Of a stretch of 64,000 nucleotides of DNA, positions 49,824 through 60,153 are shown one piece after another (the stretch's first letter is position 1; every line of letters starts with the position of its first letter). The stretch comes from Acidobacteriota bacterium. Its GTDB lineage: Bacteria; Acidobacteriota; Blastocatellia; UBA7656. The stretch lies in NCBI GenBank assembly GCA_038040455.1, contig JBBPIH010000032.1, forward strand, positions 254 through 64,253. Direction: 5' to 3'. Under the pieces are notes generated by a model. That model made no database searches, was not told the origin of the DNA, and saw only the letters and a list, made by a program, of their open reading frames with translations. Position numbers and translations under genes: made by a program.

Positions 49824-50621
49824 ATGACACGAAGACTCTTCCTGGTAGGGGCGAGCTTGATATTAGTAGGTGCGTTCGCGCGTGATGCGGCGGCACAAGC
49901 TTCGCATCCAATCTATCTTCAGTACGACGGCTATGTGAAGAACAAAGACGGCACCTACACGCTGTCGTTCGGGTACTTCAACATGAATCACGTCGACGTA
50001 AGAATCGCCCCGGGCGAGGACAACACCTTTCTCCCAGGTCCCGCCGATCGAAACCAGCCGATACTATTCTTGAAAGGGCGGCATCGATTCGCATGCAGCA
50101 TGGTGGCCCGGGCGGACTTTGACGGCAAGCTCCAGTGGACAGTGCGTTTTGCCGGGAAAACTTTCACGTCGACGGCGAAGACACTCGATCCGCTGTACGA
50201 GCTTGAACTCGCGAGCGAGAAGCGGGCTACTAACGGCCTCGACTTGGCGAAGGCCCCGAAGGGGGTCTGCGTCAACCGCTCGCCCGCGATTCAGGTGATC
50301 AATCCGCAGGCAGACGTCAATGCCGGCGCCGACACGCTCGCGGCGACGGCGTTCGTTACACGCTTGGATCAGGAGCTTTCGCTGAACGGCAGTGTAGAGG
50401 ATGATGCACTGCCGAGGGGCGGCAAGGTAACGGTCTCCTGGAAGAAGAACAGTGGACCCGGGACGGTCACCTTTTCTGACATGACGACGCCCGTCACACG
50501 CGTGCGTTTCAGCGCGGTGGGCGTCTATGAGCTAGAGCTGTCAGCCACGGACACTGAAAACACCAACGGCGTGAAGATCAAAGTGACGGTCAACGCGGCG
50601 GAAGAAAAAAAGCCGGGCTGA
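49824..50621 (+). CDS. Hypothetical exported protein with C-terminal PKD/Ig-like domain
   Basis: ATG 49824 gives MTRRLFLVGASLILVGAFARDAAAQ (Tat-like RR signal). C-terminal VTVSWKKNSGPGTVTFSD...GVYELELSATD is PKD-like. Confidence 0.6.
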   Translation: MTRRLFLVGASLILVGAFARDAAAQASHPIYLQYDGYVKNKDGTYTLSFGYFNMNHVDVRIAPGEDNTFLPGPADRNQPILFLKGRHRFACSMVARADFDGKLQWTVRFAGKTFTSTAKTLDPLYELELASEKRATNGLDLAKAPKGVCVNRSPAIQVINPQADVNAGADTLAATAFVTRLDQELSLNGSVEDDALPRGGKVTVSWKKNSGPGTVTFSDMTTPVTRVRFSAVGVYELELSATDTENTNGVKIKVTVNAAEEKKPG

Positions 50622-50794
50622 AAAACACGAACGGGAGAGCCCCGGCATTCTAGAGAGCTGCTTTCAACATCTATGGCCGTTCACTGGGAGTAAGCCTCAT
50701 CCGCTGCTAACGGGGAGGTCCTTTGCAAATTCACCGGAATTACTTCTAGGTTTCTAATCCAGCTCCCGTATATGGCGAAGAAGCAAGAAAGGGA

Positions 50795-52459
50795 TCACCC
50801 GGCAAAGTATTCTCTGTGGCGACTCAGGTCGGTTTCGCCGAAGTATTTTTCCCACCACACATCCGTGGAGTTGAGGTACTGGGGCTCGTTGGTCACGGCC
50901 GGATTTCGGTGGGCGAGCCAATCGCGGAAGGCGTTATGTTCCCACAGGCGCATGAATTCGCCGAGATATATGTCCACCACCCGCTGGTTGCCACGAATGA
51001 TTAGCATGTTCTCGTCGTTCTTGTTGCTCGAAGCACCGCTAAAGTTAGCAGAACCTGTCACCAGCACGGGGTCTGGGCCGAGTGGATCAAGGAGCATGTA
51101 TTTTGTGTGCACATATTCCACGTGAGTATTCAACTCGGTCAGCTTTTCGCGAAACCATCCGGCGAGATCCTGCTCGCGGATGTGGTTGCCGACCGCGAAG
51201 CGGTTCTCGACCATGAAGCGGAGTTTCCTCATCTTCGCCGTTTCCTCCTCGCGCTTCTCCTTGCGTACACCTGGGCCGAGCAATTTCTCAAAGAGAGCGT
51301 AGCGCAGGCGAGACTTGCCGCTTGCGAAAGCGTCCTGGAAGAGCTTATGCATGCCGAAAGCAAAGGTCATGAAGACTGCCTCTTTGGCCTGTCCAGCCAA
51401 CCACGCGTAGAGCTCCAGCGCGTCGATGGAATCGCGCGGACTGAAGACCGAGGTGGTACCCTTCGGCGGAAGCTTTTTTGCGGCGATGGAGAAGTCGCTC
51501 GTTAAGCCGGGCGCGAGGTCGTTCTTCTCGGGATTCTTTTCCAGGCGTTGCCAATAGTCGAGGTAGGCCGCTGCGACTTTCGGATCCTCAACGATGTGGA
51601 CGACGTTAGATTGGCCAAAGATGCCGCCGAGCGAGAAGTTGGTCGAACCGGTCAGGACGGACTGCGCTTCGCCGTTCTTGAGCAACACGATGAATTTGTT
51701 GTGCGAGAGGGCATCGGGCTTGGGCACGCGCTCGGTGCAGAGACTCTTGATCCGCGCCTTGGCCACTTCCACACGGTTTTCGTCCCGCGGGAAAGCCTCG
51801 CCTGCGTCGTAGAAGATCTTCACGTCTACGCCGCGGTCCTGCGCGTCGTCGATCGCGCTGAGCACCGTCGGCAGACGGAATTCATAGGCTCCAACCCGCA
51901 GGCCCCAGTGGTTGTCTTCGGCACGGTCGATGAAATCGAGAATCGCTTCGTGCGCGCCGCGCGAGAGCCACTTCCAAGTCGGATGGTCCATATTGTCCTC
52001 CGGCGGTTTCCTGTTGCCGAAGCGGCGCGCGAATTCCTGCGAGGCCGTCGCCCCGCGGTTGAAATAGACATCGTGATCGCCTCCCGCCGGTTCTTCCGTG
52101 GCGATCTCCACCTTAACCTCGGCAAAAGGCTCGAGCGCCGCGGGTTCGCCCTTAAGCGCCACGACCCGGTACGTGTATTTGTGACCCGGCTTTGCCGAAT
52201 AATCTGACCACCAGAAATCTTGGATCGGCTGTTCGCGAGTGGAATGCCGCGCGCCCGGTGCCAGCTTCGGGTCGTTCTCGCGAAAGACCTTCGTTCCCTG
52301 CAGCCAATAAGCTTCTTCCTCGGTGTGGTCCGTGCGATGGATTCCAAAGCCGCGCAGGCCCGGGCAATGCGACTTCTTCAGATTGAATGTCAGCAGCACC
52401 ACATAGGTGCCAGCGATGGCGTGAACGGACAGGCGCGCGCTGGTGGCTTTTTTCCTCAT
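50795..52459 (-). CDS. Phospholipase D superfamily protein with two HKD motifs and an N-terminal beta-sandwich-like region
   Basis: HKD-1 is SHNKFIVLLKNGEAQSVLTGSTNFS. HKD-2 is VHTKYMLLDPLGPDPVLVTGSANFSGASSNKNDEN. No signal peptide. Flanked by visibly AT-richer spacers. Confidence 0.8.
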   Translation of the reverse strand: MRKKATSARLSVHAIAGTYVVLLTFNLKKSHCPGLRGFGIHRTDHTEEEAYWLQGTKVFRENDPKLAPGARHSTREQPIQDFWWSDYSAKPGHKYTYRVVALKGEPAALEPFAEVKVEIATEEPAGGDHDVYFNRGATASQEFARRFGNRKPPEDNMDHPTWKWLSRGAHEAILDFIDRAEDNHWGLRVGAYEFRLPTVLSAIDDAQDRGVDVKIFYDAGEAFPRDENRVEVAKARIKSLCTERVPKPDALSHNKFIVLLKNGEAQSVLTGSTNFSLGGIFGQSNVVHIVEDPKVAAAYLDYWQRLEKNPEKNDLAPGLTSDFSIAAKKLPPKGTTSVFSPRDSIDALELYAWLAGQAKEAVFMTFAFGMHKLFQDAFASGKSRLRYALFEKLLGPGVRKEKREEETAKMRKLRFMVENRFAVGNHIREQDLAGWFREKLTELNTHVEYVHTKYMLLDPLGPDPVLVTGSANFSGASSNKNDENMLIIRGNQRVVDIYLGEFMRLWEHNAFRDWLAHRNPAVTNEPQYLNSTDVWWEKYFGETDLSRHREYFAG

Positions 52460-52670
52460 GACCTAACTCCTCTGTAAGGGCAGTTCGAATTCTGAATCTA
52501 CGGTGCGTTGATCTTTCTAGTGGTAGAACGAGAGAAACATATTTGAATGACGTCAGGAAGAAAAGACGCCAGCTCTTCTTGAGATATTGAGTGGAGCTAC
52601 ATGAAGAGGAGAGGCTCTCGCGTAGGGAGCCTCTCCTCCGGGAACTGATCGCGACTGCGCCGGCGCGCTG

Positions 52671-54011
52671 CTACTGTGGATTTCCGCTTGCGGACGCCAC
52701 CGACCTCGACCGGCTCCCCTTTTGCTTCTGCAGTTCCGCGTACTCCTGATCGCTGATGTAGTAGAAGTCGAGCCAGCCGATGTTCATCTCGTCGACCGTC
52801 CGGTCGCCCCAGCCGATGAAGGCAGTTGGATCAGGATTTTCCTTGTTGCCCGGCGAGTTGTCATGGTAGGCGGTCATATGGAGGACCGTGCCCTTCGGCA
52901 AAGTCGGCGGGTTCTTGTACGGATAGGTGATCTGCCACGTCCAGACGAAGTGCGCAACATCGGTTAGCAACTCCACCTGGCCGCTTGGAAGAATCGCCTC
53001 GAGCGTCTGCCGCTTACCGCGATAGTGCATGTGCGGTTGGAAGCTGACGAGCCTCGCCGGCTCCTCGAGACGAAAGTAGGCATCGCTTCGAGCATTCGGT
53101 TCGCCCGGAGGAATGGCCAGCGTCGAAGGCGACGAGATGCCCTTGGTGGAGATCAAGTATTTCGGAGTGTAGCCCTTCGGGAAGAATTTGAATCCGATTT
53201 TCGCGCGCTCGTTGACTGCCTTTTCACCGTCGGGGTGATAGTGGAAGCTGAAACGGAGTTTCGACCCTGCCTTCAGCAGCTTGGCTGTGCCGTTGGTGAA
53301 GATGTCGCCGTCGCCACCTCTTGCGTGCTCGATGAGGAGGGAATTACTGACAGGGCTTCGGCGCTGTTCGCCCCGCACGCCGCCGGTGGCAGGTTCGCCT
53401 TGGAGTGCATAAATGAGGACGTGGTGAAGAACCTTCGGGTCCTCGGGGATGACTTGCATCCACTTGATGTACCGATCCTCGGTAAGCCCCGTGGGGACAT
53501 CCACCTTAGGATACTGATCAGCAGCGACTGCAGGCACTAGGAACCCTGAGCTTGTCACGACCAGGTCAGGCTCCTCGCCGAACACCCACGAATTGGCTGC
53601 CGGAAAAACTTTCGGCGGAGGCGCGTCTTTCGGATCCCCTTTCGGCGCGCCGCTGTCCACCCACTTGGCGATAGTGGCGATCTGCGCATCGCTAAGCGAG
53701 GGATCGGGGTCGTATTCACCGACCGTGCGATCGATATGCCACGGCGGCATGTATCGCGTGACGACTTTCTCCTTGATCGAGCGCGCCCACGGCCGAGTCT
53801 GCTCGTAAGTCAGCAGCGACATCGGCGCCATTGTGTCAGGCCGATGACACTCCTGACATGACTTTTGGAGGATCGGAAGGATGTCCTTGGTGAAGGTCGG
53901 GGTCTTCGGGACCGCGCCGTCATTCGAATCGGCCGTCGCGGCGGGAAGAGCGATCCCTGTGATGACGATCGCGAAGGCTACGACGCCAGCGAGCTTCCAG
54001 TTGATGTTCAT
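52671..54011 (-). CDS. Exported c-type heme (CxxCH) protein fused to a PHM/DBH-like copper type II monooxygenase fold
   Basis: ATG 54011 after GGAGGAG. Signal/anchor NINWKLAGVVAFAIVITGIALPA. Heme motif CQECH. Ordered His/Met pattern LHHVLIY ... FSFHYHP ... QPHMHYRG ... LHMTAYH matches the CuH (HH..H) and CuM (HxH..M) ligand order of peptidylglycine alpha-hydroxylating monooxygenase. Confidence 0.6.
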   Translation of the reverse strand: MNINWKLAGVVAFAIVITGIALPAATADSNDGAVPKTPTFTKDILPILQKSCQECHRPDTMAPMSLLTYEQTRPWARSIKEKVVTRYMPPWHIDRTVGEYDPDPSLSDAQIATIAKWVDSGAPKGDPKDAPPPKVFPAANSWVFGEEPDLVVTSSGFLVPAVAADQYPKVDVPTGLTEDRYIKWMQVIPEDPKVLHHVLIYALQGEPATGGVRGEQRRSPVSNSLLIEHARGGDGDIFTNGTAKLLKAGSKLRFSFHYHPDGEKAVNERAKIGFKFFPKGYTPKYLISTKGISSPSTLAIPPGEPNARSDAYFRLEEPARLVSFQPHMHYRGKRQTLEAILPSGQVELLTDVAHFVWTWQITYPYKNPPTLPKGTVLHMTAYHDNSPGNKENPDPTAFIGWGDRTVDEMNIGWLDFYYISDQEYAELQKQKGSRSRSVASASGNPQ

Positions 54012-54233
54012 AATCAGACTCCTCCTTGATGGGTGTCTGAGTCTCGAGACTTTCGGACACTCTAGCACTACCAGACTTCAAAGTCTAACACTTCTCGATC
54101 CGGTTGTCTCTGGGATCCGAGTCCCACGATGCCTTGTCACCTCCAGCCCCCTGAGTGCGGCACCCAGATGTTAGTGCAATAGTGCCGTCCCGGTAAATCG
54201 TGAAGTGCGGTAAGCCGCTGCGATACCAATTCT

Positions 54234-55319
54234 TCAGCGGCTGGACATCGGCCGCGCATCCGGGCGCAGCGTGAGCTTCTGGACGCGCCAGTTCAAAAGC
54301 TCCGCCACGTAGACCTCGTTCTCCGAAGGGCAGGCTATTTCGTGTATCCAGCCGAACTGCTTGGGCTGCTTGCCTGACTTGCCCACCACCCCGAGGACCT
54401 TCCCCTCCAACGTGAGCTTGTAGAGGCGGCCGGGGTACGCGTCCGAGGAGTACAACACTTGATTCGGTCCGGGAGTTATGCACATCGCCCAGGGCGCGCC
54501 GTTCTGCGCGGCCGCCGCTTCAGGCGTGGGCATGTTGCCCTGTGCCGGCCGCGTGTTCGGATCGAAAGGCACATCGATCGTGATCGCGCGAATGAATGCG
54601 CCGTTGGGATCGAACACCTGAATGCGCCGGTTCCCCCGATCCGCTACGTAGATGTTTCCTTTGGCGTCTGCAGCGATGCTGTGGGGCGTGTTGAATTCAC
54701 CCGGTTTGGTTCCGCGATCGCCCCACTGCTTCACCCAGGCGCCGTTCTTGTCGAACTTGGCTACGCGAGAGTTGATGTAGCCATCGCTGATGAATACGTT
54801 GCCTTCGGTGTCCCACGTCACGTCGGTCGGCTGCCGGAACAGGCCGTCTACGGCTGGGCGCGGCGGCGTGACGCGCGTCCAGGGCACGGCCTCATCCGAC
54901 GCTTCCTTCTTGCGGCCGAACACCATCACCACGCGCCCTTCCGGGTTGAACTTGATGACCATGTCCGAGCCTTTATCCACCGCCCAGACGTTGTCCTCTT
55001 TGTCGATCCGCACGGTATGAGCGTACGACCACCCGTATAGGTTCTTGCCGATCTCACGGATGAACTTGCCGTTCGGTGCGAACTCCAGCAACTGCGCCGC
55101 CGTTGCCGCGTAAGCCGGTCCGGTTGTGTTCCCGCGCTGGAAGACGAACACGTGGCCCTTCGAGTTGACGGCTACACCCGCCACTTCACCCAGGTGCAAA
55201 TCTGGCGGCAGCTTAAGGAAGTCGACGTTCGCATCGACCTTGATTTCAGGCACCGGTGTTTGAGTAAACACAGGATTCGCTGTCAGCAGGAGAGTCAGAA
55301 CTAATAACAAGCGTCTCAC
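54234..55319 (-). CDS. NHL-repeat six-bladed beta-propeller, peptidyl-alpha-hydroxyglycine alpha-amidating lyase (PAL)-like, secreted
   Basis: Signal MRRLLLVLTLLLTANPVFTQ. NHL units GVAVNSKGHVFVFQRG, PTDVTWDTEGNVFISDGYINSRVAKFDKNG, PHSIAADAKGNIYVADRGNRRIQVFDPNG. Confidence 0.7.
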   Translation of the reverse strand: MRRLLLVLTLLLTANPVFTQTPVPEIKVDANVDFLKLPPDLHLGEVAGVAVNSKGHVFVFQRGNTTGPAYAATAAQLLEFAPNGKFIREIGKNLYGWSYAHTVRIDKEDNVWAVDKGSDMVIKFNPEGRVVMVFGRKKEASDEAVPWTRVTPPRPAVDGLFRQPTDVTWDTEGNVFISDGYINSRVAKFDKNGAWVKQWGDRGTKPGEFNTPHSIAADAKGNIYVADRGNRRIQVFDPNGAFIRAITIDVPFDPNTRPAQGNMPTPEAAAAQNGAPWAMCITPGPNQVLYSSDAYPGRLYKLTLEGKVLGVVGKSGKQPKQFGWIHEIACPSENEVYVAELLNWRVQKLTLRPDARPMSSR

Positions 55320-55479: not shown

Positions 55480-55818
55480 TCATTTCGGACGCTTGAACCA
55501 CGATTCTATCTGATTGGTGTAGCCTGCGTAGGAGCCCGAGCTGAAGGTTTCACTGGAACGAGGTGTTACCGAAACCAATTCCCATCCCTGATCGCCCAGT
55601 TCTTTCACCTTCGAGACGGCACTAACGGGGCCAGGAAGCGCCTTGTCGTCCTCAAACCAGGCTGACCAACCGCCACCACCGGTCGAAGAACGATGCACAA
55701 CAATGACTTTATACTCCCAAGCTTGCCTCACTGTTGTAGGTCTTTGTGCGTACACGCTCCATACCCCTACGCACAAGAAGGCGGCCACAGCCAGCGAAAG
55801 GTAAAGTTTGTTCTTCAT
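55480..55818 (-). CDS. DUF4177-like small exported protein
   Basis: Signal MKNKLYLSLAVAAFLCVGVWSVYAQ. WEYKVIVV ... LGDQGWELVSV pattern as in DUF4177. Confidence 0.55.
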   Translation of the reverse strand: MKNKLYLSLAVAAFLCVGVWSVYAQRPTTVRQAWEYKVIVVHRSSTGGGGWSAWFEDDKALPGPVSAVSKVKELGDQGWELVSVTPRSSETFSSGSYAGYTNQIESWFKRPK

Positions 55819-55919: not shown

Positions 55920-56984
55920 CTACTTCTTTACATATCTCTTCAAGGCTCGCGGGCCTACTTCCGCCCCGTATATGTTTCCCTTCGCATCCACCGCGACGCC
56001 CTCGGCCGCGCTGGTTCCCGCCCCGGGTCCTGAGTCCACATTCGGGTTCGGATCAGGAATGAAAGCCGTGACCTTACCGTCCTTCACGCTGCCGATCCTT
56101 ATGCCCCTCTTCCATCCCGGGTTCCGCCTCGCGCTCGATTCTGAGTCAGCGGCATAAAGGATATCGTTCCTGATGTAAATACCGCTCAACCGGCTAAACT
56201 GCTTCCATTCTTCGAGGAACTTTCCATCCTGATCGAAGATCTGGATCCGGTTGTTGTTACGATCGGCGACGAACAGCCGGCCTTTGGAATCCATCGCCAG
56301 ACCGTGAGGCGTGTCGAACTCGCCGGGAGCCGTGCCCTTCCTTCCCCACGTCTTGATGAACTTTCCGTTTTTATCGAACTTGACGATGCGAGCGTTTGTA
56401 TTGCCGCCGTGTCCGTCCGCTACGAAGATGTCGCCGTTGGGAGCGGTGATAACATCCGATGGCTGATTGAAAGTGTCCGGGGCGTCTCCGGCAACTCCGA
56501 GTTTTCCAAGCGTCAGCAAGACCTTGCCCTCGGGACTGAACTTGACGACGATATGTCCCTTTCCCGTTGCCGCTTGCTGGTTGGCAGCGCCCGGCGGAAT
56601 GCCGTCGGTCACCCACACGTTTCCCTGTTTGTCGACATGGATGCCGTGGGGGAAGACGAACATTCCCGCGCCGAAACTCTTCACAAGTTTGCCCGTCTCG
56701 TCGAACTTGAGAACCACCGGCAGGTTCGAACCGGCGCAACTGTTTGCGCCGCATCTTTCGGCGACCCATACCGACTTGCCGTCGGGAGCGATGTCGACAG
56801 CGCTTGTTGCTCCCCACGTCCTTCCCTCAGGCATCTTCGCCCAGCCCTCGACAGTGCTATATGGATTGGGCAGGTCATTGACCGGTTGCACATTGCCCTG
56901 GGTGTGCGCCATCCCCGCAGTAGATGCGAGCACGGCAGCGATGGCTACGAGAAGCATGAATCTCTTTCGACCTGAATGCGACAT
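55920..56984 (-). CDS. NHL-repeat beta-propeller (PAL-like paralog), secreted
   Basis: ATG 56984 after GGGAGGA. PHGIHVDKQGNVWVTDG, PSDVITAPNGDIFVADGHGGNTNARIVKFDKNG, PHGLAMDSKGRLFVADRNNNRIQIFDQDG. Confidence 0.7.
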   Translation of the reverse strand: MSHSGRKRFMLLVAIAAVLASTAGMAHTQGNVQPVNDLPNPYSTVEGWAKMPEGRTWGATSAVDIAPDGKSVWVAERCGANSCAGSNLPVVLKFDETGKLVKSFGAGMFVFPHGIHVDKQGNVWVTDGIPPGAANQQAATGKGHIVVKFSPEGKVLLTLGKLGVAGDAPDTFNQPSDVITAPNGDIFVADGHGGNTNARIVKFDKNGKFIKTWGRKGTAPGEFDTPHGLAMDSKGRLFVADRNNNRIQIFDQDGKFLEEWKQFSRLSGIYIRNDILYAADSESSARRNPGWKRGIRIGSVKDGKVTAFIPDPNPNVDSGPGAGTSAAEGVAVDAKGNIYGAEVGPRALKRYVKK

Positions 56985-57019
56985 GGCAGTTCCTCCCTTA
57001 AGAAAAGACGTAGTCCATC

Positions 57020-57133
57020 CATTCTTCATTTGTCATTTGTCATAATTATCATTTCAATTTTGAGTGCCCGCAATAAATGGCCTATGACAAATCAAAAATG
57101 ACAAATGACAAATGGAAAATGGAAAATGACATG
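57020..57133. repeat. Inverted heptamer-array element (TTTGTCA / TGACAAA type, AT-rich)
   Basis: Left arm is CATTCTTCATTTGTCATTTGTCATAATTATCATTTCAATTTT. Right arm is ATGACAAATCAAAAATGACAAATGACAAATGGAAAATGGAAAATGACATG. Confidence 0.9.
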
Positions 57134-57147
57134 CTCTTTCGACCTCG

Positions 57148-58626
57148 TCAGTTTGACCGCGGTTTGGTGGTGGACTGTATCATCAACTCTGGGTCGTTCG
57201 CCATATTCGAATCTTCGCGGTCAACGACCGCGCCTTCAGCGACCCGCCCTGCTCGGTGCCGAAGCACCCCGGCGAGCCAGATCACGCCCGCAAGAATCAA
57301 AATCACAATCAGCCAACGCATGGCAGTCGCTAGTAGAGCGGCGTTCATGACAGGCCATCCGAACTGCCTCAGCCGCTCCGCGCGCTCGATCATCCAGTGC
57401 CAACCGGCGTGGGCTACCAGCGCTGACAGAATGATCGTACCCACGCGTTCAGCGACAACGAACCGGAACAGGACCTGCAGCGCGGGGATGAGCAGCGCGA
57501 GCACCAGGAGCTGCCCAAGCTCGACGCCGATATTGAATGACAGAAGCGAGGTCAGCAGGTGGGACCCGCCAAACTGGAGCGTCTGCCGGAGCGCGAACGA
57601 GAAGCCGAACCCGTGGACCAGACCAAACCCGAGAGCGATCATCCACCGGCGCTGCACGTTGCTCCCGACGATGTTCTCGAGCGCCATATAGATGATTGAA
57701 ACTGCGATCAGCGTTTCGATCAGCGGCGGAAACCACAGTGCGTCCGGCCCGAGGTTGTAAGCGGACGCGATCAGCGTAATCGAGTGCGCCACGGTAAAGG
57801 CGGTGACGACCATGATGAGCGGGCGGAAACGGCGGAATGGGATCACGAGACAAAACAGGAACAGAAGATGGTCGGTTCCGTCGAGGATGTGCAAGAACCC
57901 TGCTTCGACGAATCGCAGCGCGGCTTGATGCCACCGCGGATCAAGCCTGACCAGACCCGGATCGCCCTCGAACTCGAAGGCGCGAACAGCACCCCCGGGC
58001 GGGAGGAACCGAAGTACGGTGACTACTCGCAACCCCAGTCCCGCGAGTCGGGGACGGATCGAAAAGTCCGATAGGGCCGAGTGAATCGGGTACTCGAACA
58101 ACACGTCGAGCAGCCCCTGGTTCCAATAGAGCTCGGTATCGATGGGTAGCCTGGTGCCCGTAACGTGCGCAAGGGCGTCTTCGTAGGATTCGAAGAACTT
58201 CTCCGACTCCAGACCCGCGCGGGCGGCGATGACGCGCGGCTCACTGAGGCGGGCATCGCCTTCGTACAGCTCGACATTATCAGAGATCCACAGTGTCGCC
58301 GCGTCGCGGAGCGAGGCGTCGGCTCGCGCGAGATCCAGATAGCCCGGCCCACGTGTCGGAAAATCCACATCGCGACAGGCCCGTAGCGGCACGCGAACCA
58401 GCAAATGCAGCCGCTGACCTTCGGGCTTGAGAAATGCCTGAACCGTGACGTCGTTCGGAATGTCGTGAGCGGTCGCGCGGAACTGCAGCGTAAGAATCAG
58501 CGCCGCCACCAACGCAGCGATCACGCGCGGCCTGACGATTGTGCGACCGCCCTTCAGCACGATCCTCTTCTCCTGCGGGTTGCTGAGTTGAAAGTCTGAC
58601 TCGGAGTCCAACACAGTGAAGCCCAT
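57148..58626 (-). CDS. HupE/UreJ-family membrane protein with a large N-terminal periplasmic domain
   Basis: C-terminal TM core GFLHILDGTDHLLFLFCLVIPF ... TAFTVAHSITLIASAY ... FGLVHGFGFSFAL ... FNIGVELGQL. About 250 aa of soluble region precede it. ATG 58626 chosen (MGFTVLD...). Confidence 0.65.
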   Translation of the reverse strand: MGFTVLDSESDFQLSNPQEKRIVLKGGRTIVRPRVIAALVAALILTLQFRATAHDIPNDVTVQAFLKPEGQRLHLLVRVPLRACRDVDFPTRGPGYLDLARADASLRDAATLWISDNVELYEGDARLSEPRVIAARAGLESEKFFESYEDALAHVTGTRLPIDTELYWNQGLLDVLFEYPIHSALSDFSIRPRLAGLGLRVVTVLRFLPPGGAVRAFEFEGDPGLVRLDPRWHQAALRFVEAGFLHILDGTDHLLFLFCLVIPFRRFRPLIMVVTAFTVAHSITLIASAYNLGPDALWFPPLIETLIAVSIIYMALENIVGSNVQRRWMIALGFGLVHGFGFSFALRQTLQFGGSHLLTSLLSFNIGVELGQLLVLALLIPALQVLFRFVVAERVGTIILSALVAHAGWHWMIERAERLRQFGWPVMNAALLATAMRWLIVILILAGVIWLAGVLRHRAGRVAEGAVVDREDSNMANDPELMIQSTTKPRSN

Positions 58627-58902
58627 CACTCCGCCAGGCCGGTGCCTCTCTCCGCGACCGCATAGTAGTAGTCCGGGGCGGCGACTGACAAGCGAAATGA
58701 GGGGCAGCACTTTCCTGGACCGCGGAGCCGGCTATCGAGGCTATCGAGAAAAACCTCGCGACGGATTTGAAGCGAAACGCGTATAGTGATACGCTCCGAG
58801 ATCTCCGAGAGAAATCCTGTTTCTAGTTTGTAATCAGCACCAGTTGAAGGCGAGCCTCCCCGCTGTGACCACGGAGCTTGCACCTGAAAAGGGAGAACCT
58901 GG

Positions 58903-60153
58903 ATGAGCAATATCAAGCAGAAGCATGATCTTCATGTTGGTGCGCTTCTTGTCACTGCCCTAATCGCTCTCATAGTCAGTCACACGTTACTAGAGAAGAG
59001 CGTAGTCGCTCAGCGACGGGGCGGAGTGCAGGCGCCCAGGTTCCAGGTGGACCCGCTCTGGCCGAAGCCGCTGCCTAACCACTGGGTCCTCGGTTCGGTT
59101 ACTGGCGTCGCCGTTGATTCTCAGGATCATATTTGGATTGCGCATCGAGGAGCGGATTCGCTCGGCAACAACGAAAAGGGCGCGATACTAAACCCTCCGA
59201 CTGGCTGTTGCGTCCCGGCCCCGCAGGTTCTCGAGTTCGATCAAGCAGGTACCCTGGTCAGTCACTGGGGCGGCCCGGGGCAGGGCTTCGACTGGCCGCA
59301 GTCTACTGGTGGGATCACCGTCGATCACAAGGGAAACGTGTGGATCGCAGCCGCTGGTCAGCCCGAAACGGCTGCTGGGCGAGCCGCCGGAGCGCCCGCT
59401 GCCGGAGGCGCGAGAAGCGCCGCCTCGGCAGCTCCCCGGCTGCAAGACGCTCACGTGATCAAGTTCTCTCGCACGGGACAATTCCTTTTACAGATCGGAC
59501 GCGCGGGCAAGGTCGAGGGCAGTGACAGCAAGAGCGGGCTGAACCGGCCGGCAAGCGTAAGAGTCGATCCTGTTGCGAATGAGGTTTACGTCGCGGACGG
59601 ACTAGGCAATCACCGGGTAATTGTGTTCGACGCGGAAACCGGGGGCTACAAGCGGCACTGGGGAGCCTACGGCGATAAGCCTGATGACGCGACTCTTGGT
59701 CCGTACGATCCCAATGCGCCGCCGGCGAAACAGTTTCGCACCGTGAGCGGCGCAGCCCTCTCGAAGGATGGCCTGGTATATGTCTGCGACCGCCAGAACG
59801 ACCGAATACAGGTGTTCCGCAAGGACGGCAAGTTTGTAAGGGAAGCGTTCGTATCGAAAACCACTCTCGGCGACGGGTCGGTGTGGGACATTGCGTTTTC
59901 CAGCGACCCGCGGCAAACCTTCGTCTACGTTGCCGACGGACACGACAAAAAAGTGTTCGTCCTGCGGCGGGATACGCTCGAGGTCGTGACGAGCTTCGGC
60001 GACGGAGGGCGCCTGGCAGGCCAGTTCTACGGTGTCGGAAGCATCGCCGTGGATTCGAAGGGCAACGTCTACACCGGCGAGACCTACGAAGGAAAGCGCG
60101 TACAGAAGTTCGTTTATAAAGGCCAGGGTACGGTCGCGGGTCAGAATCGGTAG
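58903..60153 (+). CDS. NHL-repeat beta-propeller, membrane-anchored/exported (tandem paralog 1)
   Basis: N-terminal anchor LHVGALLVTALIALIVSHTLL. PRFQVDPLWPKPLPNHW, GVAVDSQDHIWIAHRG, PASVRVDPVANEVYVADGLGNHRVIVFDAETG, GLVYVCDRQNDRIQVFRKDG. Confidence 0.7.
   Translation: MSNIKQKHDLHVGALLVTALIALIVSHTLLEKSVVAQRRGGVQAPRFQVDPLWPKPLPNHWVLGSVTGVAVDSQDHIWIAHRGADSLGNNEKGAILNPPTGCCVPAPQVLEFDQAGTLVSHWGGPGQGFDWPQSTGGITVDHKGNVWIAAAGQPETAAGRAAGAPAAGGARSAASAAPRLQDAHVIKFSRTGQFLLQIGRAGKVEGSDSKSGLNRPASVRVDPVANEVYVADGLGNHRVIVFDAETGGYKRHWGAYGDKPDDATLGPYDPNAPPAKQFRTVSGAALSKDGLVYVCDRQNDRIQVFRKDGKFVREAFVSKTTLGDGSVWDIAFSSDPRQTFVYVADGHDKKVFVLRRDTLEVVTSFGDGGRLAGQFYGVGSIAVDSKGNVYTGETYEGKRVQKFVYKGQGTVAGQNR

Follow-up and report, generated by a model that had tools for sequence, protein, structure and literature searches.

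Does a bacterial chromosome encode, as separate neighbouring genes, the two activities that animals join in the peptide-amidating enzyme PAM? The question is raised by a 64,000-nt window (the whole stretch of DNA analysed here) from an Acidobacteriota bacterium of the Blastocatellia (GenBank assembly GCA_038040455.1, contig JBBPIH010000032.1, positions 254 to 64,253). Two genes lie head-to-tail on its minus strand, 222 bp apart. One (52671–54011, stop codon included) encodes a 446-aa exported protein that combines a cytochrome c domain with a region resembling PHM (EC 1.14.17.3), the catalytic core of PAM; the other (54234–55319), here termed NHL_A, encodes a 361-aa exported six-bladed NHL propeller resembling PAL, the lyase of the animal system. 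The initial annotation, made from the DNA letters and their translations, had suggested that the two act together as an amidation-like hydroxylation and lyase system; both open reading frames are confirmed. The answer that we favour, with moderate confidence, is that these are two separate periplasmic metalloenzyme systems of predicted function that are neighbours largely through lineage-specific gene order. What regularly accompanies the PHM-like gene is not NHL_A but a gene for a secreted protein with immunoglobulin-like (Ig-like) and PKD domains.

The PHM-like gene starts with an ATG at 54011, preceded 8 nt upstream by the ribosome-binding site AAGGAGG, and its homologues share this start position. 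The N-termini of both the PHM-like protein and NHL_A resemble signal peptides, with cleavage sites predicted by reading the sequence; in the PHM-like protein this segment is residues 1–27 (MNINWKLAGVVAFAIVITGIALPAATA; 53931–54011, minus strand), with cleavage expected after ATA. Export is needed for the attachment of haem to a c-type cytochrome. The mature protein carries the motif CQECH at residues 52–56, followed in order by LHHVLIY, FSFHYHP, QPHMHYRG and LHMTAYH.

An AlphaFold2 model of the protein, built from 24 homologues, has a predicted local distance difference test score (pLDDT) of 76.7 and a predicted template modelling score (pTM) of 0.75. When it was compared with the PDB by Foldseek, ranks 1–31 were all rat PHM or human dopamine beta-hydroxylase (DBH), with E-values from 1.3e-11 to 1.1e-8, probability 1.0 and target-normalised TM-scores of 0.35–0.60. 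Profile alignment (hhalign) to a rat PHM sequence that was verified against PDB entries places H196, H197, H257, H327, H329 and M409 of the window protein on H107, H108, H172, H242, H244 and M314; the roles of these rat residues as CuH and CuM ligands are given in PMC12164859. By alignment and fold match, the CuH-type site (H196, H197, H257) would lie in an N-terminal beta-sandwich (53187–53594, minus strand) and the CuM-type site (H327, H329, M409) in a C-terminal one (52722–53186, minus strand), which also holds H378/H383, D384/N385 and R331. Conservation was scored in 110 PHM-like sequences from genomic loci, covering 14 subfamilies at 32–89% identity: the five histidines are invariant (110/110) and M409 is present in 109 of the 110, so the motifs go beyond chance. 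The PHM fold and the aligned copper ligands on which the initial annotation had hung its proposal are thus both found, and every motif that it quoted is present, with one correction: the CuM methionine is M409 of DEMNIGW, aligned with DEM314C of PHM, and not the methionine of LHMTAYH. The modelled fold and the alignment together show the protein to be a member of the PHM/DBM copper monooxygenase superfamily, with a full set of predicted CuH and CuM ligands.

Several observations pull against this assignment. The pLDDT falls below 50 around residues 399–407, beside M409, and the hhalign comparison with a single PHM sequence is weak by itself (E = 0.035). The Pfam model for the C-terminal domain, Cu2_monoox_C (PF03712), matches residues 298–424 at E = 4e-4, and its 20.3 bits lie below the gathering score of 23; the N-domain model Cu2_monooxygen (PF01082) gives no match in the window protein. 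Of the hidden Markov model (HMM) matches anticipated at the outset, therefore, the NHL match of the neighbouring propeller is clear (E = 1.4e-17), Cu2_monoox_C is found below its gathering score, and Cu2_monooxygen fails. Across the family, Cu2_monoox_C matches 24 of 24 members, all sub-threshold or marginal (best E = 1.4e-5). Sequence searches of the PDB with the protein and with the family profile found nothing, so that the relationship to PHM emerges only from comparing folds and aligning profiles. The protein is not covered by any NCBIfam model. The family has more than 5000 homologues; the wider family sharing the PHM-like core, counted in clusters at 50% identity, comprises 6,378 clusters at E ≤ 1e-3 and 3,145 at E ≤ 1e-10. 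Some members form tandem arrays of two to three cytochrome c/PHM-like paralogues, 32–38% identical to each other (loci L066–L078, from Hydrogenedentota, Nitrospirales and Thermoanaerobaculia); no recognisable PKD partner was found in these arrays.

The predicted copper sites thus resemble those of PHM; the substrate-binding residues do not, and the protein is no close functional counterpart of PHM. Y318 and N316 of PHM form part of the clamp that holds the glycine carboxylate of the substrate. The third clamp residue, R240, also binds that carboxylate (PMC12164859). In the hhalign register R240, N316 and Y318 fall on Q325, I411 and W413 of the window protein, and position 325 is never arginine in the 110 sequences. 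Because this clamp is replaced, the substrate of the PHM-like enzyme is probably not a glycine-extended peptide. An arginine without PHM counterpart, R331, stands two residues after the second CuM histidine and is kept in 101 of 110 sequences; from its position it could bind a carboxylate in place of R240. Other residues near the CuM motif also lack a counterpart in rat PHM. The histidine pair H378/H383 of LHxTAYHDN (codons at 52878–52880 and 52863–52865) is found in 70–71 of the 110 family members and is subfamily-specific, while D384/N385 is nearly universal in the family; H378/H383 and D384/N385 could make up an additional site for a metal or a substrate.

Between the signal peptide and the first beta-sandwich lies a monohaem class I cytochrome c domain (residues ~36–130; 53622–53906, minus strand), recognised by CxxCH and methionine conservation and by Pfam. 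Its haem motif CQECH is encoded at 53844–53858 and its probable axial ligand, Met88 of RYMPPW, at 53748–53750. C52, C55 and H56 are kept in 109 of the 110 sequences and M88 in all 110, so haem ligands and copper ligands are co-conserved in the family. The Pfam model Cytochrome_CBB3 (PF13442) matches 19 of 24 family members (best E = 1.3e-5), and the AlphaFold2 model of the domain has helices at 40–53, 69–84 and 108–119.

Relatives carry further redox modules ahead of the same core. An AhpC/TSA redoxin plus cytochrome c precedes it in several of ten long representatives scanned; in one of 1251 aa (P0363) the set of redoxin, cytochrome c and PHM-like core is present twice. On the Chondrinema litorale plasmid NZ_CP111057.1 (L363:5330–7383) an AhpC/TSA redoxin gene lies 9 bp upstream of the gene for a cytochrome c/PHM-like protein, a distant Bacteroidota homologue with 26% identity. 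In two Acidobacteriota metagenome-assembled genomes (MAGs), one of them labelled Vicinamibacterales, a gene for a pyrroloquinoline quinone (PQQ) quinohaemoprotein dehydrogenase overlaps the stop codon of the PHM-like gene (L016:10001–13491 and L017:10001–13458); the PKD partner is absent from both, and the dehydrogenase is a possible electron source. This modularity supports a haem domain that feeds the copper sites, and on the evidence of domain order and conservation such a supply is plausible. The early suggestion that the c-type haem replaces ascorbate as donor fits the modular redox domains, with the electron step itself a prediction.

By sequence, NHL_A is homologous to the zinc lyases of the PAL family and its PAL-type site is complete; lyase activity is predicted for it. 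It contains the blade motif ADRGNRRIQVF noted initially, and its Pfam NHL match is the one given above. A phmmer comparison with rat PAL (3fvz) aligns one collinear stretch, query residues 44–246 on 24–234 of 3fvz, at E = 6.5e-24; BLASTP extends over query residues 44–351 with 29% identity in 336 alignment columns (E = 1e-28). NHL_A thus aligns over nearly its whole length with rat PAL, whose sequence was checked separately. R62, H101, Y181, H213, R228 and H326 of NHL_A correspond to R533, H585, Y654, H690, R706 and H786 of rat PAL, so the PAL active-site residues whose presence the initial annotation had left to be checked are all retained, and they are retained in 119 of 119 NHL_A orthologues. 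H585, H690 and H786 we take to be the PAL zinc ligands described with the 3FVZ structure; Y654 is the catalytic residue, and R533 and R706 bind the substrate. Of the structural Ca site, to which V520 and L587 contribute carbonyls, V520 is kept, L587 is replaced by V and D787 by E; M784 is replaced by W. Two other NHL propellers of the window, NHL_B and NHL_C, lack parts of the PAL site: NHL_B (55920–57029, minus strand) has His in place of the Tyr and misses the third His, and in NHL_C (58903–60153, plus strand) the site is absent.

Relatives of NHL_A among the matches of a motif scan come from Acidobacteriota, Alpha-, Beta- and Gammaproteobacteria, Gemmatimonadota and Verrucomicrobiia, with a median identity of 68%; replicons of cultured Burkholderia and Caballeronia encode orthologues that are 65–67% identical. 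In Burkholderia sp. YI23, the only Burkholderia-type neighbourhood inspected, the genes around the orthologue are unrelated. There, on plasmid byi_1p (L362:5875–10911), a gene for a serine-glyoxylate transaminase is found 2.7 kb away from the stand-alone orthologue of NHL_A. The PAL reaction yields glyoxylate as its by-product; the proximity may be coincidence. A conserved neighbour of NHL_A was sought in 80 loci and none was found, the best cluster occurring in 10 of the 80.

Coupling of the two genes was assessed from both sides. On the PHM-like side, 80 genomic loci with 10-kb flanks were sampled: eight have a gene of NHL_A type within 10 kb and five have it within 1 kb, all of them close Blastocatellia relatives, and an NHL gene is nearby in none of the roughly 45 Vicinamibacterales loci. 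On the PAL-like side, a PHM-like gene is found in 7 of 80 NHL_A loci, the other 73 having none within 10 kb. The motif scan gave, among the matches listed, 120 further loci from which 8-kb stretches were fetched; 117 of these encode an NHL_A relative, and 116 of the 117 have no PHM-like gene in the stretch. The single locus of the scan with PHM-like genes beside NHL_A is from Terriglobia (L346). An independent second sample, of 80 metagenome contigs carrying the sister PHM-like subfamily (subfamily 2), has NHL_A in four. Adjacency in 8/80, 7/80, 1/120 and 4/80 loci, together with the replaced clamp residues, goes against the two-enzyme amidation-like system proposed at the start.

Genomes that hold both genes, and loci with one and not the other, point the same way. 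In two individual genomes among the matches listed, which are single cases and not genome-wide statistics, both genes are present and unlinked: they lie 1.09 Mb apart on contig CAVRVT010000004.1 (L017 and L357) and on different contigs of assembly DASREL01 (L020 and L232). Five Blastocatellia loci (L005, L008, L009, L011, L012) keep the PHM-like gene and NHL_B and lack NHL_A at the locus. Among the 150 best core representatives there is no fusion of the PHM-like core with an NHL domain. The Gly-terminated small exported peptides that might have served as substrates were looked for as exported small open reading frames ending in G, GK or GR, and none occurs within 48–61.5 kb of the window, the only neighbourhood searched. 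The best reading of these observations is that the adjacency of the PHM-like gene and NHL_A is largely lineage-specific, mainly to Blastocatellia; a two-step amidation system as a general property of both families is not supported.

The separation of the two genes has nevertheless to be set against a body of contrary observations. Their adjacency is far above the random expectation for single-copy genes, which we roughly estimate at about 0.1–0.3% per genome. It also recurs in several gene orders: L089 is rearranged to PHM-like, PKD, HupE, NHL_A, NHL_B; in L346 two PHM-like genes come after NHL_A; the metagenome contigs L364, L390 and L403 have NHL_A upstream, and L431 has it convergent downstream. 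Genes for other NHL propellers and the HupE-like gene are also repeatedly found close to the module, in 17 of 80 loci. Moreover, in closely related Blastocatellia, whose NHL_A is 84–92% and whose flanking isocitrate dehydrogenase is 89–91% identical, the slot beside NHL_A holds one or the other of two different PHM-like subfamilies, that of the window or another. Since the adjacency exceeds chance and comes in several orders, a facultative functional link may exist between them.

The slot in question, between NHL_A and LRV/isocitrate dehydrogenase genes, contains one of two alternative PHM-like plus PKD cassettes. Comparison of window positions 49824–54011 with L056:8063–14480, L082:6470–12839 and L083:433–6403 shows the cassettes to be 43–45% (PHM-like) and 27–31% identical between flanking genes that are 84–92% identical, each cassette having its own PKD gene. 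From this contrast the PHM-like plus PKD cassette looks to have been replaced in place.

The partner that does recur is the 265-aa secreted two-domain Ig-like/PKD protein, encoded in the window at 49824–50621 on the plus strand, convergent with the PHM-like gene. In 55 of the 80 genomic loci a gene for this protein, or for just its N-terminal Ig-like domain of ~120 aa, lies no more than 1.5 kb from the PHM-like gene, usually directly downstream on the same strand in Vicinamibacterales and convergently in Blastocatellia. Of the 80 metagenome loci, 59 have at least 0.9 kb of downstream flank, and 56 contain the subfamily-2 equivalent. Natural fusions of PHM-like and PKD proteins, in both orders, occur among the 150 best core representatives (P0367, P0368, P0376 and P0380); the junctions of P0368, P0376 and P0367 are continuous, with no internal signal peptide. 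The AlphaFold2 model of the partner consists of tandem Ig/PKD-like sandwiches for which Foldseek returns generic Ig/PKD matches only. Invariant polar and aromatic residues (N52, D54, N67, N79, Q90, W117) mark its conserved N-domain. A role as copper chaperone was considered for the partner and dropped, the conserved N-domain having no conserved His, Cys or Met.

Taken as two separate systems, the locus suggests the following scheme. Periplasmic electron carriers would reduce the haem c of the PHM-like protein; the haem would re-reduce CuH, which would hand electrons to CuM; and CuM would activate O2 and hydroxylate a C–H bond, the haem domain taking the role that ascorbate has in animals. Since the Ig-like/PKD protein is a near-constant neighbour and sometimes fused, the enzyme would work with it, or on it. 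NHL_A would presumably act without the copper enzyme and cleave a carboxylate substrate of N-(alpha-hydroxy) or similar type.

The most obvious rival is a split PAM, in which the PHM-like protein would use electrons from haem c to hydroxylate the alpha-carbon of a C-terminal glycine (or of an N-acylglycine) in the periplasm, and NHL_A would cleave the resulting carbinolamide to amide and glyoxylate. Each half is a genuine homologue, by structure or by sequence, and has its metal and catalytic residues complete; both proteins are exported from genes on the same strand 222 bp apart; the adjacency recurs well above chance, in more than one gene order and with members of two PHM-like subfamilies; and R331 could stand in for R240 as carboxylate binder. 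We nonetheless hold this reading to be distinctly improbable. The clamp is replaced at every position (R240 to Q325, N316 to I411, Y318 to W413); NHL_A is absent within 10 kb from 72 of 80 PHM-like loci and from 76 of 80 metagenome loci of subfamily 2, just as 73 of 80 and 116 of 117 PAL-like loci are without a PHM-like gene; and the unlinked genes of two genomes, the five Blastocatellia loci that keep NHL_B without NHL_A, the lack of fusions among the 150 best representatives and of G-, GK- or GR-ended peptides within 48–61.5 kb all tell against it. A narrower version would confine to Blastocatellia and a few other Acidobacteriota a pathway from separate genes in which the PHM-like enzyme and then NHL_A carry out, in the periplasm and independently of ascorbate, a hydroxylation and N-dealkylation of amidation type; the recurrent facultative adjacency would then be the genomic trace of such a PAM counterpart. 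This too we rate as a clearly improbable outcome.

The other rivals concern the copper enzyme itself. Its core might be a periplasmic redox protein and not a hydroxylase. It could, for instance, serve as an oxidase, reduce peroxide or superoxide, or act as a copper-dependent sink for electrons, which would reach it from haem c and, in relatives, from the peroxiredoxin-like domain. That many relatives fuse an AhpC/TSA redoxin to cytochrome c and core would suit such a role, as would the NCBI name of one 84%-identical relative ('alkyl hydroperoxide reductase'), the arrays of two to three paralogues in Hydrogenedentota and Nitrospirales with no obvious pathway genes identified nearby, and the loss of all PHM substrate-binding residues. 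We think it unlikely, however: the His3/His2Met pair of sites is strictly conserved and, to our knowledge, known only from PHM/DBM/TBM monooxygenases, and both the dedicated protein partner and the pocket residues that differ by subfamily (H378/H383, position 325) point to specific substrates. Alternatively, the Ig-like/PKD protein may itself be the substrate, with a side chain hydroxylated by the PHM-like enzyme in the manner of MbnH/MbnP. Near-obligate adjacency, the fusions, and an N-domain with invariant polar and aromatic residues and no conserved metal ligands are consistent with this, yet a short-linker fusion fits a structural subunit or a substrate-binding module equally well and Foldseek finds only generic Ig/PKD relatives, and we regard the idea as very improbable. 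Two separate systems, neighbours mostly by lineage-specific gene order, thus remain the reading that we prefer.

So read, the PHM-like protein shares with PHM and DBH two beta-sandwich domains, a CuH His3 and a CuM His2Met site in matching order and register, and an oxidising extracytoplasmic compartment. It differs in being bacterial and periplasmic, with an N-terminal c-type cytochrome fused to it where the animal enzymes rely on soluble ascorbate, and in having a dedicated Ig-like partner; the PHM clamp R240/N316/Y318 reads Q/I/W, and a PDB sequence match is absent. NHL_A shares with rat PAL the six-bladed NHL propeller, the three Zn histidines, the catalytic Tyr, Arg533 and Arg706; it differs in M784 (W) and in D787 of the Ca-site (E), and in being a stand-alone gene, found in many phyla with no PHM-type neighbour. 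Electron delivery from the cytochrome of cellobiose dehydrogenase to lytic polysaccharide monooxygenase (LPMO), and from cytochrome b561 via ascorbate to PHM and DBH, offers a functional analogy: there, as would be the case here, a haem protein gives single electrons to a mononuclear copper site that activates O2. Unlike those systems, the haem of the PHM-like protein is c-type and covalently fused within one polypeptide, and relatives have a redoxin domain of thioredoxin fold in addition.

Work on two-copper monooxygenases of the PHM/DBM type has dealt almost exclusively with animals, where ascorbate is the reductant. The literature library searched yielded no publication on PHM-like or PAL-like enzymes of bacteria, and a 2019 review of PAM evolution leaves prokaryotes unmentioned. 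The locus is one representative of a large, uncharacterised family of bacterial proteins that combines the two-copper ligand set with a c-type haem and a dedicated Ig-like protein. If active, such proteins would offer a self-contained, ascorbate-independent version of two-copper chemistry for mechanistic work and would form a new class of periplasmic C–H hydroxylases in soil Acidobacteria, possible biocatalysts among them. The bacterial PAL homologue has a complete active site and 65–75% identity from Acidobacteriota to Burkholderia. That the pairing of the two genes is non-obligate should curb the spread of 'bacterial PAM' as an annotation and redirect attention to the conserved PKD partner.

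The genes around the pair complete the picture of the locus. Five consecutive genes occupy 52.6–58.7 kb of the minus strand: HupE-like, NHL_B, a gene for a 112-aa protein, NHL_A and the PHM-like gene. The 222-nt region between the last two was scanned for promoters and terminators with co-transcription in mind, and site counts were at or below shuffle expectation; folding of the region has a z-score of -1.8. The 112-aa protein, a small exported one with weak DUF4177 similarity, is encoded between NHL_B and NHL_A (55480–55818, minus strand). Nearest relatives of the window genes are in Blastocatellia MAGs.

Between the PHM-like gene and the PKD gene lies a PLD-like gene of 554 aa (50795–52459, minus strand; Pfam PLDc_2). 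At other Blastocatellia loci only 28–332 bp separate the PHM-like and PKD genes, which cannot hold a 1.7-kb gene; it therefore stands outside the module and, from this comparison, looks like a recent insertion.

At the upstream end, the HupE/UreJ_2-type gene (57148–58710, minus strand; Pfam PF13795, E = 2.4e-42) encodes a membrane protein whose N-terminal domain is long and which is a candidate metal transporter. It is a recurrent neighbour of NHL_B plus NHL_A in Blastocatellia-type loci, where NHL_B travels with it, and it may serve the adjacent metalloenzymes. NHL_B and the HupE-like gene are nearly always found together. The N-terminal extension of the HupE-like protein is ~260 aa long, and its mature end would start at a histidine (..ATA|HDIPND).

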